Counted from the stretch's first letter, positions 12,097 to 54,310 are shown. The stretch: DNA of 64,000 bases from a bacterium (GCA_041640295.1 JBEQAR010000001.1:16453-80452); one strand, 5' to 3'. Notes: generated by a model not told the origin, from the letters alone. Made by a program: numbers and translations.

Positions 12097-13347
12097 TTAT
12101 AATTTGAAAATATATTTTCTAACTAAATAATAACTTAATAGTAAATTAAGTAACTGAGCGATATAAGTGGTTATTGCTGCGCCATACATACCGTAATAAG
12201 GAATCAGTAAAAAATTTAATAGTAAATTTAAAGACGCGCAAAAAGCGGTGATAAAGAAGTTTTGCCATTGTTTATTATAAATAAATAAAAGATGATCTAA
12301 AATAGAAATAAAAGATATTAATAAAATTATCCAGATTAAAAATTTAAATAGATTGATTGATGGTTCATAATGACCATTACTAAAAAATAAAGTAAAAATA
12401 GGTTCAATTAATATTAAACTAAGTAAGCATATTGAAAAATAAATTAGAAAATTATAAACAACTACTTTATTAATAATTCTTTTAATTTTTCCAACATCTT
12501 CTCTCATTTCTGAAAGATGTGGAAAAAGTGCTGCTAAAAAGAAACCAATAATTAAATGCAAATTAAGAATTAATTTAGTTACTAAAGTATAATAACCAAC
12601 CTCTTGATAGCCCTTTAAATAACCTAAAATTATTTGATCGGTAGTAAAAAATATAAAACCTAAAACACCAAAAAACATTATTGGTGTTCCATTAATTAAA
12701 AAATATTTTGCTCTATTCAATTGAAATTTAAAATTTTCTAAATTAATTATCTTTTTGAAAATTAATAACGCGTAAAAGAAAGAAATTGTAATTCCAATTA
12801 AGTAAGCAACAGATAAAAAGATAGGTTTGTTAATTTCTCTTAAGAAAAAAATTACCAAAATTAAAATTAAAAAAGATTCAATTAATGTTGAAATACCTTC
12901 GTATTCCATTCTTTTTAATGCTTGAAAGATTGTGTGGAGCATGTATTTCACCTGAGAAATTAAAGAAAAAATAAAAATAATTAAAAACATTAATCTTGAT
13001 TGATAATCTTTAAAAATTAAAAAGCCTAAAAATATTAAAAGAGAAGTTAAAGCTAAAATAATTAATCTAAAAGTAATAAAATTTTCTATTAACTCCTTTT
13101 TATTTTCTTCTTTTTGATAATCTCTAACTGTTAAATAACCACTACCCCAATCAGCAAAAATAAAAAAAGAACCAACAATAGCTAAAACATAAGAAAAATG
13201 TCCATAACCTTGAGGACCAAGATATTTAGCTGAAGTTATAATAATTAATAATTTAAATATTTTAGAAAAAAAATTACTGAAATATAACCAAAAAGTGTTT
13301 TTTAAAACGGTTTGTTTAGGGTTAAGATTTTCGAATAAAATCTTCAT
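12097..13347 (-). CDS. MOP-superfamily polysaccharide/lipid-linked oligosaccharide flippase (Wzx/PST-like)
   Basis: The 416-aa polytopic membrane protein has about 12 TM segments and the N-terminal pattern NTFWLYFSNFFSKIFKLLIIITSAKYLGPQGYGHF, typical of the PST family. Confidence 0.65.
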   Translation of the reverse strand: MKILFENLNPKQTVLKNTFWLYFSNFFSKIFKLLIIITSAKYLGPQGYGHFSYVLAIVGSFFIFADWGSGYLTVRDYQKEENKKELIENFITFRLIILALTSLLIFLGFLIFKDYQSRLMFLIIFIFSLISQVKYMLHTIFQALKRMEYEGISTLIESFLILILVIFFLREINKPIFLSVAYLIGITISFFYALLIFKKIINLENFKFQLNRAKYFLINGTPIMFFGVLGFIFFTTDQIILGYLKGYQEVGYYTLVTKLILNLHLIIGFFLAALFPHLSEMREDVGKIKRIINKVVVYNFLIYFSICLLSLILIEPIFTLFFSNGHYEPSINLFKFLIWIILLISFISILDHLLFIYNKQWQNFFITAFCASLNLLLNFLLIPYYGMYGAAITTYIAQLLNLLLSYYLVRKYIFKL

Positions 13348-13349
13348 AA

Positions 13350-14258
13350 TTACAAAATTTTAAATGAATTATATTGCTTAATTATTCTTCGCCAAATGAT
13401 TGTCATTTTATCTACTTTAGCTAAGATAGGTCCTTTTTTCAAATTACCAATAAAATCATCAAGTTTATTCAAATAACCTTGAGCAATTATTTTTACTCTT
13501 CCATCTAATAAATTTTGAGCATAACCAGTAATATTTAATTTTTTAGCAGATTGATAACAAAAATAACGGTAACCTACTCCCTGAACCCTTCCCTTAACAT
13601 ATATTTTAACTTCTAAAATTTTTTTTTCTATATCCTTGAAAGTTAATGCTTGTTTAAGGTCAAAATTGTTAATCTTTTCTCTAATTAAATTCCACAAAAC
13701 TCCACCGCAAGAAAGTTCTTCTCCTAAATCATTAGCAAAACTTCTTACATAAAAACCAGAACTAACTGTTAATCTAATTTTTAATAAATTATCATAAAAA
13801 TCGACAATTTGATAATCATAAAGATTAACTTCTTTAGGTGTTAAAGTAAAATCAATCCCCCGCCGAACTAATTTATAGGCTGGTTGACCTTTAATTTTGA
13901 TTGCTGAATATTTAGGCGGTATTTGTTTAATTTTTCCTTGAAATTTTTTTAATTTTTCTTTAATTTTTTCTAAATCAATTTGACAATTTCCTTTTTTAAT
14001 CAATTTTCCTTCTCGATCATAAGTTTCAGAAACATAACCGAATTTAATTTCTGCTAAATAAGTTTTTTTTGTTTTTGTCAAAAAATAACGAAGATATTTT
14101 GTACCAGTACCAATTCCAATAATTAATAAACCCTGAGCCAATTTATCTAAAGTCCCACCATGGCCTATTTTTTTCTCTTTTGTTATTTGTTTAAAATAAT
14201 CTAAAACCTGCTGAGAAGTATATCCTGATGGTTTATTAAACAACACAATTCCTTCCAT
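13350..14258 (-). CDS. truB: tRNA pseudouridine(55) synthase TruB fused to a C-terminal acylphosphatase-like domain
   Basis: Residues 1 to about 210 carry TruB motifs (GYTSQQV and the catalytic HGGTLD). Residues from about 218 to 302 carry both acylphosphatase signatures, VKGRVQGVGYR and GYAQNLLDGRVKIIAQG. Confidence 0.85.
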   Translation of the reverse strand: MEGIVLFNKPSGYTSQQVLDYFKQITKEKKIGHGGTLDKLAQGLLIIGIGTGTKYLRYFLTKTKKTYLAEIKFGYVSETYDREGKLIKKGNCQIDLEKIKEKLKKFQGKIKQIPPKYSAIKIKGQPAYKLVRRGIDFTLTPKEVNLYDYQIVDFYDNLLKIRLTVSSGFYVRSFANDLGEELSCGGVLWNLIREKINNFDLKQALTFKDIEKKILEVKIYVKGRVQGVGYRYFCYQSAKKLNITGYAQNLLDGRVKIIAQGYLNKLDDFIGNLKKGPILAKVDKMTIIWRRIIKQYNSFKIL

Positions 14259-14259
14259 T

Positions 14260-15246
14260 TTATTCTAAATTATTCAAAATATATTTAACAATTTTTTTTA
14301 CTGATAATTCACTAATAAAACCAGCAGAATACTTATGTCCACCGCCACCCAGTTTTTTAGCTATTTGACCAACATTAATTTTTTCTGATCTTAAACTACC
14401 GTAAATTTTATTTTTTTTCTTAACTAATAAAGCAATAGTTTCTATATCAGTAATTAATCTTAAGTATTCTAAAAATGAACCTAATCTTTTTATTCTTTTG
14501 TTTTTTTCTAAATAGATTAACATAAATCTTTTTTTATAATATATTTTTATTTTATCAATTAAAAATATTAACTTTTTAAACTCTGAAAATTTAAAACCAT
14601 AAATTTTCTTAATAATAGCGAACAAATCAATTTTTTCATCATATAACTTTTCTAAAATCTTGAATGTTTCTTTATTTTTAATATAACGTAAACCAACTGT
14701 ATCACCAATTATTCCTGTGAGAATATTAAGTTTAAATTTGGAAGTTAATTTAAAATTAAAAAATTCAGCTAATTTAAAAATAATAACAGAACAAGAGTCA
14801 GCATTTTCTTCTAAATAGTAAACGCTCTCTTTAATAGAAAATGAGGCATGATGATCAATAATAAAAACTTTGTTATAATCAATAAATTTTTTTTCTAAAC
14901 CTAATCTTTCTTCATCAGTAGTTTCAATACCAATAATTAAATCGATTTCATTAGGTGATTCATTGATCTTGTTTTGAATTAATTTTAAATCATCGTTAAT
15001 ATTTTTTAGAATATCTTTTTCGTAAAAATAATCTTTATTAAATAAAATAATTGTTTTCGTAGGATAATTTTTCTTAAGAAGATAATATAAGGCTAATTGA
15101 GAAAATAAACAATCAGGGTCAGGTTTACGATGAGAAACGATTAAAATTTTTGATGAGTTTTCTAATTTACTTTTTAACTTTTTACAAAATTTATTTAAAT
15201 TATCAATTTTCATGTTGATGGAGCTGGTAAATAAAGTTTTCTCCAT
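14260..15246 (-). CDS. nrnA: DHH-family phosphoesterase, NrnA-like oligoribonuclease / pAp phosphatase
   Basis: DHH motifs are present (SHRKPDPD, IDHH and a DHHA1 GGGH). Confidence 0.8.
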   Translation of the reverse strand: MEKTLFTSSINMKIDNLNKFCKKLKSKLENSSKILIVSHRKPDPDCLFSQLALYYLLKKNYPTKTIILFNKDYFYEKDILKNINDDLKLIQNKINESPNEIDLIIGIETTDEERLGLEKKFIDYNKVFIIDHHASFSIKESVYYLEENADSCSVIIFKLAEFFNFKLTSKFKLNILTGIIGDTVGLRYIKNKETFKILEKLYDEKIDLFAIIKKIYGFKFSEFKKLIFLIDKIKIYYKKRFMLIYLEKNKRIKRLGSFLEYLRLITDIETIALLVKKKNKIYGSLRSEKINVGQIAKKLGGGGHKYSAGFISELSVKKIVKYILNNLE

Positions 15247-52762: not shown

Positions 52763-52801
52763 AAAAAACCGCCGGCGGGGATTGTACCCACATCCGGCGG
52801 T
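52763..52801 (-). terminator. Rho-independent terminator of the Pro-rich small gene
   Basis: A GC stem (A)CCGCCGG pairs with CCGGCGG(T) around an 18-nt loop at 52768-52801, followed on the minus strand by a T6 tract. Confidence 0.6.
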
Positions 52802-52818
52802 GTACTGAGATAACCCCC

Positions 52819-53097
52819 CTAAGGGGGTGGCTGGGATGGTGAGGGTGGTGGGGACGGGGGTTGGGGGTGGTAGTCCTGGTTACGGACCACCACCCGGTTC
52901 TCCTGGGCAGTCGTGCTTACAGTGATACTACCCAACTGACCCCGCTGCCAGCCACCCTCAACCAACTCGGCACTCTTTTGGAGAGCGCCGAGAGAATCGA
53001 AAGAGTTGGAGGGGGGGCGGCTGCGACGGCCCGCCATAATAAGGGCAGCAATTGCCGCTGTCCCAGACGCCCCCGCTAAAATCCAAAGAATTTCCAT
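52819..53097 (-). CDS. Small high-GC gene: N-terminal TM anchor plus Pro-rich C-terminus (92 aa)
   Basis: The ATG at 53097 is preceded by GGAGGTG 7 nt upstream. The product is MEILWILAGASGTAAIAALIMAGRR...PQPPSPPPSPSQPPP. GC content is far above the window average. Confidence 0.5.
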   Translation of the reverse strand: MEILWILAGASGTAAIAALIMAGRRSRPPSNSFDSLGALQKSAELVEGGWQRGQLGSITVSTTAQENRVVVRNQDYHPQPPSPPPSPSQPPP

Positions 53098-53118
53098 TTT
53101 TTAGCACCTCCGTTTATT

Positions 53119-53146
53119 ATTATACTACAAAAAATTTTTTTGTCAA
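53119..53146 (-). promoter_or_regulatory. Near-consensus sigma70 promoter (TTGACA-N16-TATAAT) driving the Pro-rich small gene
   Basis: On the minus strand the -35 TTGACA (plus strand 53141-53146, tgtcaa) and the -10 TATAAT (plus strand 53119-53124, attata) are 16 nt apart. The SD GGAGGTG lies at 53105-53111. Confidence 0.6.
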
Positions 53147-53150
53147 GTAT

Positions 53151-53187
53151 AAAAAAGGCGCCCATTAATGAGCGCCTTTAAAAAAAA
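53151..53187 (-). terminator. Intrinsic terminator hairpin flanked by A/T tracts on both sides (bidirectional) after the collagen-like gene
   Basis: AAAGGCGC-ccattaatga-GCGCCTTT forms an 8-bp stem at 53154-53179, with A6 and A8 tracts either side. Confidence 0.6.
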
Positions 53188-53189
53188 TG

Positions 53190-53582
53190 TTACTCCTCTT
53201 CCCTGGCCATCAGGCCCAGAAGGAGTAACAACCCGAATACCTCGGCGGCGAGAATGCCGGCGAGGACGCCGGGCAGGGGGTCGCCCGGGTCCCCTTTTGG
53301 ACCCGGCGGACCCTCAGGTCCTCTTGGCCCTTGCGGGCCAAAAGGACCAGCAGGTCCTCTTGGCCCTTGCGGGCCACGAGGGCCCCTCAATTTCTCCCGA
53401 ACCTCCTTGTCCGGGAGAACTAGTTTATCCCACTCCGCATCCTGCGGAGTGGTCCCGCCTCTCTCAATGCGGGCGGGGAGGACAATGGTTCCCTCGGCCC
53501 CCTTCTTCTCCTGAGCCAGGGCGACCGAGAAAGAAGTGAGAAGAAAAAGACCACTAAGGCCCAGGATTAAAATTAACCTCAT
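53190..53582 (-). CDS. Collagen-like (G-P-X)n repeat surface protein with a signal peptide and C-terminal TM anchor, high-GC
   Basis: The start is placed at the ATG at 53582, which has GGAGGTG 6 nt upstream; the ORF track starts at the GTG at 53591. The product has a signal peptide ([11 protein letters not shown]), 11 uninterrupted Gly-X-Y triplets ([33 protein letters not shown]) and a C-terminal hydrophobic helix. Confidence 0.6.
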
Positions 53583-53601
53583 ATAGTTCACCTCCGTTTT
53601 A

Positions 53602-53868: not shown

Positions 53869-54099
53869 TTAGCCCCATACTTTTCTCCAAAAATCTTTTT
53901 CTTCAATTTGAGCTAATTTTAGTATTCCTTTTATAGTTCCAGGGGCTAATTCTTTATGAAGGGGAACTATTGTTATAATCTCTTGTTTATCAACTTGCTT
54001 TTTTAATTTCACATGGCTACCTTTTTGAGAAATAAAATAAAAACCAAAATTTTTACACAAAATCTTAATCACTTGCCTTCCCGAGAGTGGCTTATACAT
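53869..54099 (-). CDS. hicA: HicA-family mRNA interferase toxin
   Basis: The 76-aa product (SGRQVIKILCKNFGFYFISQKGSHVKL...TIVPLHKELAPGTIKGILKLAQI) matches the HicA dsRBD-like fold and the conserved GSH motif. Confidence 0.75.
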   Translation of the reverse strand: MYKPLSGRQVIKILCKNFGFYFISQKGSHVKLKKQVDKQEIITIVPLHKELAPGTIKGILKLAQIEEKDFWRKVWG

Positions 54100-54310
54100 T
54101 CTCTAATTCAAGAGTAGTTATCAAAGGAGCATTTTTAGGAAGAGATTTTTTGATTTTTGGTTGATCTTCTAAATATAATTCAACAGCCTCTTTAAGGTTT
54201 TTTTGAGCATCCTCAATTGTTTTTCCTTGACTTACTACACCTAATTCAATACATCTAGCTACATACCATCTTCCTTCTTTAATAATAATTGTGGTGAACC
54301 GATAGGCCAT
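54092..54310 (-). CDS. hicB: HicB-family antitoxin (RNase H-like fold, no DNA-binding extension)
   Basis: The 72-aa product YRFTTIIIKEGRWYVARCIELGVVSQGKTIEDAQKNLKEAVELYLE matches the HicB/UPF0150 core. It overlaps hicA by 8 nt. Confidence 0.7.
   Translation of the reverse strand: MAYRFTTIIIKEGRWYVARCIELGVVSQGKTIEDAQKNLKEAVELYLEDQPKIKKSLPKNAPLITTLELENV

Follow-up and report, generated by a model that had tools for sequence, protein, structure and literature searches.

A tRNA pseudouridine-55 synthase TruB with a C-terminal acylphosphatase domain in a clade of Patescibacteria

The window, a bacterial DNA stretch of 64,000 nucleotides, encodes a protein in which the catalytic core of the tRNA pseudouridine-55 synthase TruB is joined directly to an acylphosphatase (AcP) domain. 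The fusion protein is found in one clade of Parcubacteria/Paceibacteria-type Patescibacteria, where it is vertically inherited. In it, a known enzyme takes on a new architecture, of which no description was found in the literature searched. Few RNA-modifying enzymes are as strongly conserved as TruB, and what its accessory PUA domain does is still under investigation. A probability of about 0.5 was assigned to the reading that the protein is bifunctional and that its AcP site, placed where PUA would be, is intact for phosphate binding or hydrolysis. The features on which the analysis is based are given below, with positions counted from the first letter of the window.

12097..13347, minus strand: polysaccharide/MurJ-type flippase, downstream gene, 2 nt past the fusion stop (ORF listing; Pfam Polysacc_synt on the identical gene)
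13350..14258, minus strand: TruB-acylphosphatase fusion gene, 302 aa (ORF listing; Pfam and NCBIfam matches)
13353..13619, minus strand: AcP domain, residues 214–302, without a linker to the TruB core (PF00708, Foldseek, phmmer)
13476..13526, minus strand: AcP second signature GYAQNLLDGRVKIIAQG, residues 245–261, with the codon of catalytic Asn249 at 13512–13514 (read from the sequence)
13566..13598, minus strand: AcP phosphate-binding loop VKGRVQGVGYR, residues 221–231, with the codon of catalytic Arg231 at 13566–13568 (read from the sequence)
13620..14258, minus strand: TruB pseudouridine-55 synthase catalytic core, residues 1–213 (TIGR00431, Foldseek, phmmer)
14145..14162, minus strand: HGGTLD motif, residues 33–38, with the codon of catalytic Asp38 at 14145–14147 (read from the sequence)
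14260..15246, minus strand: DHH/DHHA1 phosphoesterase (NrnA-like), upstream gene, one base from the fusion gene (ORF listing; Pfam DHH and DHHA1 on the identical gene)

Domain architecture and predicted structure

The fusion ORF begins with an ATG start codon and remains open and uninterrupted up to the stop codon at 13350–13352, which is counted within the end coordinate. Pfam analysis revealed a TruB_N domain (PF01509) at residues 23–171 (E 4.5e-47; 160.6 bits against a threshold of 27.3) and an acylphosphatase domain (PF00708) at residues 218–301, which covered profile positions 2–85 of 85 (E 2.9e-26; 92 bits against a gathering score of 22.5). The NCBIfam TruB equivalog model TIGR00431 matched residues 1–208 with 207 bits, above its cut-off of 151.45. 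TruB_C_2 (PF16198) gave a partial, sub-threshold match at residues 172–214 (profile positions 1–43 of 66), while the Pfam search of the fusion protein returned no match to PUA families at E ≤ 1, and PF09157 (TruB-C_2) and PF09142 (TruB_C) were likewise absent. The initial annotation had described the N-terminal residues, approximately 210 in number, as a TruB catalytic domain with its Asp in HGGTLD, and the C-terminal part as an acylphosphatase with both family signatures. Both descriptions are borne out, the former by the TIGR00431 match and the presence of Asp38 and the latter by the PF00708 match and the presence of VKGRVQGVGYR and GYAQNLLDGRVKIIAQG; in the domain scan for PF01509 and PF00708, both were found and the C-terminal domain was AcP and not PUA.

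The TruB core is a complete one of the minimal type without PUA, and every active-site residue examined was located in it, namely His33, Asp38, Tyr67, Tyr170, and Arg172, which correspond to H43, D48, Y76, Y179, and R181 of E. coli TruB. The motif around the catalytic residue, written in full, is IGHGGTLD with Asp38 last. The fusion protein belongs to the TruB family on each criterion examined except the PUA domain, which is itself not universal. For the AcP loop, the strict PROSITE pattern is V-x-G-x-V-Q-G-V-x-[FM]-R, with Phe or Met before the Arg; the fusion protein carries Tyr at the [FM] position, as do 4 of the 14 stand-alone AcPs. The sequence GYAQNLLDGRVKIIAQG satisfies the second AcP signature, G-[FYW]-[AVC]-x-N-x(3)-G-x-V-x(5)-G, including the catalytic Asn. 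NCBIfam AcP equivalog models scored 45–75 bits on the fused AcP domain, under their whole-protein cut-offs of 86–119, so that the domain reaches the cut-off of no single named AcP equivalog model. Sequence, fold, and catalytic motifs all place the C-terminal domain in the acylphosphatase family.

The AlphaFold2 model of the fusion protein, built from an alignment of 35 sequences, had a mean pLDDT of 94.4 and a pTM of 0.89, with no segment below a pLDDT of 70. At the junction between the TruB and AcP parts, where the pLDDT was 92–98, helix 207–212 continued directly into strand 214–224. The secondary structure of the AcP part, with strands at 214–224, 244–249, 255–262, 281–290, and 299–301 and helices at 228–240 and 263–275, fits the beta-alpha-beta-beta-alpha-beta ferredoxin-like fold of approximately 90 residues. 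The two domains are predicted by this model to form one compact unit, in which the AcP domain is packed rigidly on the TruB core.

Foldseek comparison of the TruB part revealed an rmsd of 1.5 Å over 207 columns to T. maritima TruB (1r3e, 2ab4) and of 1.6 Å over 212 columns to E. coli TruB (1k8w). The C-terminal part matched the archaeal acylphosphatases 2bjd and 1w2i with TM-scores of 0.92–0.95 and an rmsd of 1.2–1.3 Å; the TM-score to 2bjd was 0.95, and 4oj3 was also within this range of TM-scores. In the same Foldseek comparison, the C-terminal domain superposed on acylphosphatases and not on the PUA part of TruB or Cbf5. The phmmer analysis showed residues 2–219 to be colinear with residues 3–219 of the T. 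maritima TruB chain (E 1.7e-43), and residues 215–301 to match the stand-alone acylphosphatase 1ulr (E 1.5e-17). The onset of the AcP domain is the exact point at which the T. maritima TruB chain enters its C-terminal domain. No solved chain that combines TruB and AcP parts was found. A divergent PUA domain, the other candidate for the identity of the C-terminal domain, was ruled out by both sequence and fold.

Occurrence, conservation, and origin of the fusion

Four independent assemblies (ENA ERZ27314177, Logan DRR082460, SRR27869038, and SRR27730029) contained the identical protein of 302 aa together with identical neighbours. Searching a collection of 5.8 billion proteins revealed PF01509 together with PF00708 in all of the 120 best homologues, at 43–70% identity, and fusions made up 25 of the best 150 cluster representatives in a library built at 50% identity. 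The GTDB species genomes contributed at least five further fusions (L001–L004 and L018), one of them labelled Wolfebacteria and one Patescibacteria group. The nearest named relatives of the protein were Candidatus Parcubacteria, Minisyncoccia, and 'Patescibacteria group' MAGs. Conservation in related lineages, which the initial annotation had proposed for examination, is therefore evident from the 120 homologues and the 25 clusters.

It was also considered that a missed stop, a frameshift, or a chimera could have joined truB to a neighbouring acyP, or that the C-terminal part could be a divergent PUA domain. We regard such an artefact as having a negligible probability. The frame is open and continuous, the protein is identical in the four assemblies, more than 150 homologues have a like architecture, no stand-alone AcP adjoins truB at the non-fusion loci searched, and both fold (TM-score 0.95 to 2bjd) and sequence identify the C-terminal domain as AcP. 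Frameshift, missed stop, and chimeric assembly, the first two of which had been raised as concerns at the outset, were ruled out by the four identical assemblies and the common architecture of the homologues.

Two peculiarities were observed among the homologues. One TruB-AcP protein, P0098, which is 52% identical to the window protein, carries the NCBI label 'Candidatus Aenigmatarchaeota archaeon'. A binning or labelling error is a more probable reason than an archaeal occurrence, because its TruB is of the bacterial type and its close relatives are Parcubacteria. Six homologues (P0100, P0104, P0112, P0114, P0116, and P0118) contain in-frame low-complexity insertions of 25–100 aa within the TruB core, such as EITLNNANLETKQHETFINNN, and these fall at two or three recurrent sites.

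Conservation was assessed over 155 non-identical fusion sequences. The catalytic Asp38 was present in all 154 sequences covering the position, Tyr170 and Arg172 were present in 155 of 155, and the whole set of His33, Asp38, Tyr67, Tyr170, and Arg172 was invariant across 154–155 sequences. In the AcP domain, Arg231, Asn249, and Gly223 were each found in 155 of 155 sequences, Val225 in 154, and Gln226 in 153. The invariance of the active sites persisted in a deliberately diverse fusion set with pairwise identity down to 36%. Pairwise identities of the two domains correlated with r = 0.93, and in distant fusion pairs the AcP domain (38% identity) had diverged only slightly faster than the TruB core (44%). 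Because identities co-vary and the catalytic residues are invariant, the sequences indicate that both active sites are under purifying selection and that the two domains have long been inherited together.

A degenerate relative, P0263 (288 aa; locus L090), is known from a single 973-bp contig alone. Its C-terminus aligns to AcP, but VKKIPFD replaces VQGVGFR, and both the loop Arg and the catalytic Asn are gone. This protein hints that a structural role of the AcP domain is able to outlast catalysis.

The closest non-fusion TruBs, which occur in other Patescibacteria, are minimal enzymes of 206–258 aa without a C-terminal domain, and in 21 of the 25 fusion representatives the core was closest, among non-fusion TruBs, to that of a minimal TruB. 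The AcP-less patescibacterial TruBs of Saccharibacteria, Roizmanbacteria, Magasanikbacteria, Moranbacteria, and Colwellbacteria end just after the core (219–246 aa), as do those of Ureaplasma (201–227 aa). Most of the non-patescibacterial TruBs recovered had a C-terminal extension of 82–115 residues; among the few of these that were scanned with Pfam, one matched PF09157 (TruB-C_2) and the rest matched PF16198 only. Since the nearest non-fusion relatives are minimal TruBs, the AcP domain was probably added to a TruB already without PUA, which had lost it or never had it, rather than swapped for PUA. The claim of the initial annotation that AcP replaces the PUA domain therefore stands as a statement about position in the chain, but as an evolutionary swap it is not supported by these relatives.

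Neighbour joining of the TruB core placed all of the 25 fusion representatives in one clade of 30 leaves, the remaining leaves being the minimal TruBs P0139, P0202, P0206, and P0213 and the degenerate P0263. Bootstrap analysis recovered the fusion clade in 17 of 100 replicates exactly and in 57 of 100 under a relaxed criterion. A single origin of the fusion is likely on the sequence tree but not established, as the bootstrap support is weak. The fusion would most likely have arisen once, by the addition of an AcP gene to a PUA-less TruB.

An HMM of the AcP domain, run against six-frame ORFs of 80 truB loci and of the whole 64-kb window, detected fusion genes only. Stand-alone AcPs were found neither next to a non-fusion truB in the 80 loci nor elsewhere in the window, hence nothing points to a precursor pair of genes, and a fusion of genes that are adjacent in relatives was rejected as the route of origin. 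A search with the AcP domain alone yielded 14 stand-alone AcPs and no other fusion architecture. P0139 (locus L088) is a genuine minimal TruB nested in the fusion clade. Between this gene and the convergent tgt gene lie 555 nt without a called gene (L088, 3621–4177), in which neither an AcP remnant nor an Rfam match was found; the gap could be an unrecognised RNA gene.

Genomic context

The fusion gene belongs to a tightly packed run of minus-strand genes. The gene order DHH-truB/acyP-flippase-secE-clpB was limited to close relatives: a gene with Pfam DHH and DHHA1 lies upstream in L081–L085 and is absent upstream of the fusion in L086 and L087, and distant fusions have unrelated neighbours, such as an HD-domain protein, a transketolase, and ftsE/ftsX. 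A conserved neighbourhood was consequently rejected as a clue to function, as gene order is not kept in the distant fusions. No conserved neighbour gene that would indicate a source of acyl phosphate was present in the fusion loci compared.

The window has a G+C content of approximately 27% and contains nine tRNA genes, all nine of which carry the T-loop motif GTTCRA, the TruB target. A cluster of six tRNA genes is located at 1348–2034 (Leu, Tyr, Thr at 1535–1607, Ser, and Ser, plus Ala on the opposite strand), and the 3' CCA is encoded in none of the nine genes.

Elsewhere in the window, a GC-rich island was observed at 52800–53600, where the 4-kb bin of 52–56 kb has a G+C fraction of 0.34 compared to 27% for the window. 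The island holds an ORF at 53190..53591 (minus strand) that encodes 133 aa, with hydrophobic N- and C-terminal segments and collagen-like G-P-x repeats between them. Rfam gave no match across 52.4–55.4 kb. Adjoining the island at 53869–54310 on the minus strand, two short ORFs that overlap each other and encode 76 and 72 aa resemble a HicA/HicB toxin-antitoxin pair by eye. Because this putative pair adjoins the island, the two together suggest a horizontally acquired patch.

Possible functions of the fusion protein and comparison with known systems

The TruB part is fully equipped for pseudouridine-55 synthesis and would form this residue in tRNA, as other bacterial TruBs do, and the AcP part may retain a working phosphate-binding, hydrolytic active site, which would make the protein a pseudouridine-55 synthase and an acyl-phosphate hydrolase. 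We favour a working phosphate site because the catalytic Arg and Asn are invariant, and since the AcP part is inferred to keep such a site, the protein is most likely bifunctional. Judged from its sequence, the AcP half has an even chance of still being an enzyme, as the water-orienting Asn and the Arg are equally invariant, and motif and fold are indistinguishable from those of stand-alone AcPs. The AcP domain may also help to position the acceptor-stem side of the tRNA, because it would be rigidly placed at the PUA position. Several points count against a bifunctional protein. A loop that only binds RNA phosphate would likewise be expected to keep Arg and Asn invariant, a rigid joining without a linker is more typical of an integrated domain than of two independent enzymes, and P0263 hints at a structural role by keeping an AcP-like C-terminus without the loop Arg and the Asn. 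Nor is pseudouridylation known to be physiologically linked to acyl phosphates.

A live but less probable alternative is that the AcP domain serves as a functional stand-in for PUA. It would be a tRNA-positioning module whose Arg231 loop takes hold of the RNA by a backbone phosphate or by the 5'-phosphate at the end of the acceptor stem, with acylphosphatase activity irrelevant or lost. Other pseudouridine-55 synthases vary their acceptor-end module, and here the AcP domain is joined at the chain position of PUA, with rigid packing predicted by the model. The fusion AcP domains had a mean net charge of +4.1 compared to about +1 for the 14 stand-alone AcPs, although this contrast is confounded by a Lys-rich proteome at 27% GC and by the small control set. 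At residue 291, in an F-R-K-P motif, 84% of the fusion representatives have Lys or Arg compared to 14% of the stand-alone AcPs, and the degenerate P0263 retains the domain without its catalytic residues. However, the water-orienting Asn249 is present in 155 of 155 sequences, and binding alone has no obvious need for it; moreover, sister lineages manage without any C-terminal domain. In PMC13492117, PUA is described as a probable contact of the acceptor stem that makes catalysis about 25-fold faster; the paper cites Keffer-Wilkes 2016 for E. coli TruB without PUA, in which tRNA binding is retained and catalysis is about 25-fold slower. The ferredoxin-like domain of Prp3, reported as closest to AcP, binds single-stranded RNA, but AcP itself is described in the same source as not recognising nucleic acids (PMC4520091). 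Our own literature search on nucleic-acid-related activities of AcPs yielded nothing useful. The enzyme and PUA-substitute readings, which correspond to the second activity and the preserved tRNA binding put forward in the initial annotation, are not mutually exclusive. A bolder proposal, which we consider speculative and rather doubtful, is that the domain is a new kind of tRNA-recognition module that would take over the positioning role of PUA, its loop either reading the 5'-phosphate or acceptor-stem backbone or hydrolysing a tRNA-associated group of the acyl-phosphate type. If true, an acylphosphatase fold would for the first time have been shown to act on RNA inside an RNA-modifying enzyme.

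The fusion could also be selectively neutral, with genome streamlining having joined unrelated genes and the AcP part being dispensable and decaying. The neighbourhoods are not conserved, the two domains have no known functional link, and the nesting of P0139, P0202, P0206, P0213, and the degenerate P0263 within the fusion clade is compatible with repeated loss. Against this, the fusion is kept across lineages at 36–40% identity with both AcP catalytic residues in 155 of 155 sequences, and the AcP domain diverges only slightly faster than the core in distant pairs (38% against 44% identity). Neutrality therefore seems improbable to us.

A full-text literature search found no paper on a TruB-AcP fusion, co-occurrences of the terms being incidental, and public annotation of the fusion proteins gives only 'tRNA pseudouridine(55) synthase TruB'. 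Since the annotation says simply TruB, the second domain has been overlooked. The Patescibacteria clade is a natural experiment on the contribution of the C-terminal domain to pseudouridine-55 formation, because a minimal TruB without PUA seemingly gained, and long kept, a domain with an enzyme fold and an unaltered active site at the same attachment point. Bacterial acylphosphatases have, to our knowledge, no settled physiological role, and the strict linkage of an AcP to a tRNA enzyme in genomes of approximately 0.5 Mb is a concrete, testable lead on that role.

Comparison with bacterial TruBs (E. coli 1K8W, T. maritima 1R3E) demonstrates a colinear core with 30–37% identity and an rmsd of 1.5–1.6 Å, the Asp of HGGTLD, the conserved Tyr and Arg, and a presumed T-loop substrate; unlike them, the fusion protein lacks PUA and has the AcP domain after residue 213. 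The minimal PUA-less TruBs of other Patescibacteria and Ureaplasma have a core that ends at the same point, whereas the fusion protein runs on for 89 residues as AcP. With stand-alone AcPs of about 90 aa (S. solfataricus 2BJD, P. horikoshii 1W2I, T. thermophilus 1ULR, and B. subtilis 2FHM), the fused domain shares the fold, both signatures, and the catalytic Arg and Asn, with 33–35% identity to solved AcPs and up to 47–51% to metagenomic stand-alone AcPs. It differs from these in being the C-terminal domain of an RNA-modifying enzyme, in being on average more basic, and in the family-specific F-R-K-P motif near the C-terminus.

HypF is the well-known case of an AcP domain within a larger enzyme with its catalytic residues kept, and weak sequence matches to it were obtained (4g9i, 2.4e-8; 3vth, 5.2e-5). 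At the N-terminus of HypF, this domain passes its carbamoyl phosphate chemistry on to YrdC/Kae1-like domains, partners that the fusion protein lacks. Among pseudouridine-55 synthases, the acceptor-end module is PUA in Cbf5 and THUMP in Pus10. Both enzymes resemble the fusion protein in having a pseudouridine synthase core with an appended module on the acceptor-stem side, and Cbf5 matches the fusion core; their accessory folds are other ones, whereas that of the fusion protein is an enzyme fold with an intact predicted active site. The DUF1115 domain of Prp3 is eukaryotic, has an expanded fold, and is without the AcP catalytic motifs, in which it is unlike the fused domain. Yet this ferredoxin-like single-stranded-RNA-binding domain, likened by its published description most closely to AcP and BLUF, binds an RNA 3' overhang and is a precedent for RNA binding by an AcP-like fold (PMC4520091).
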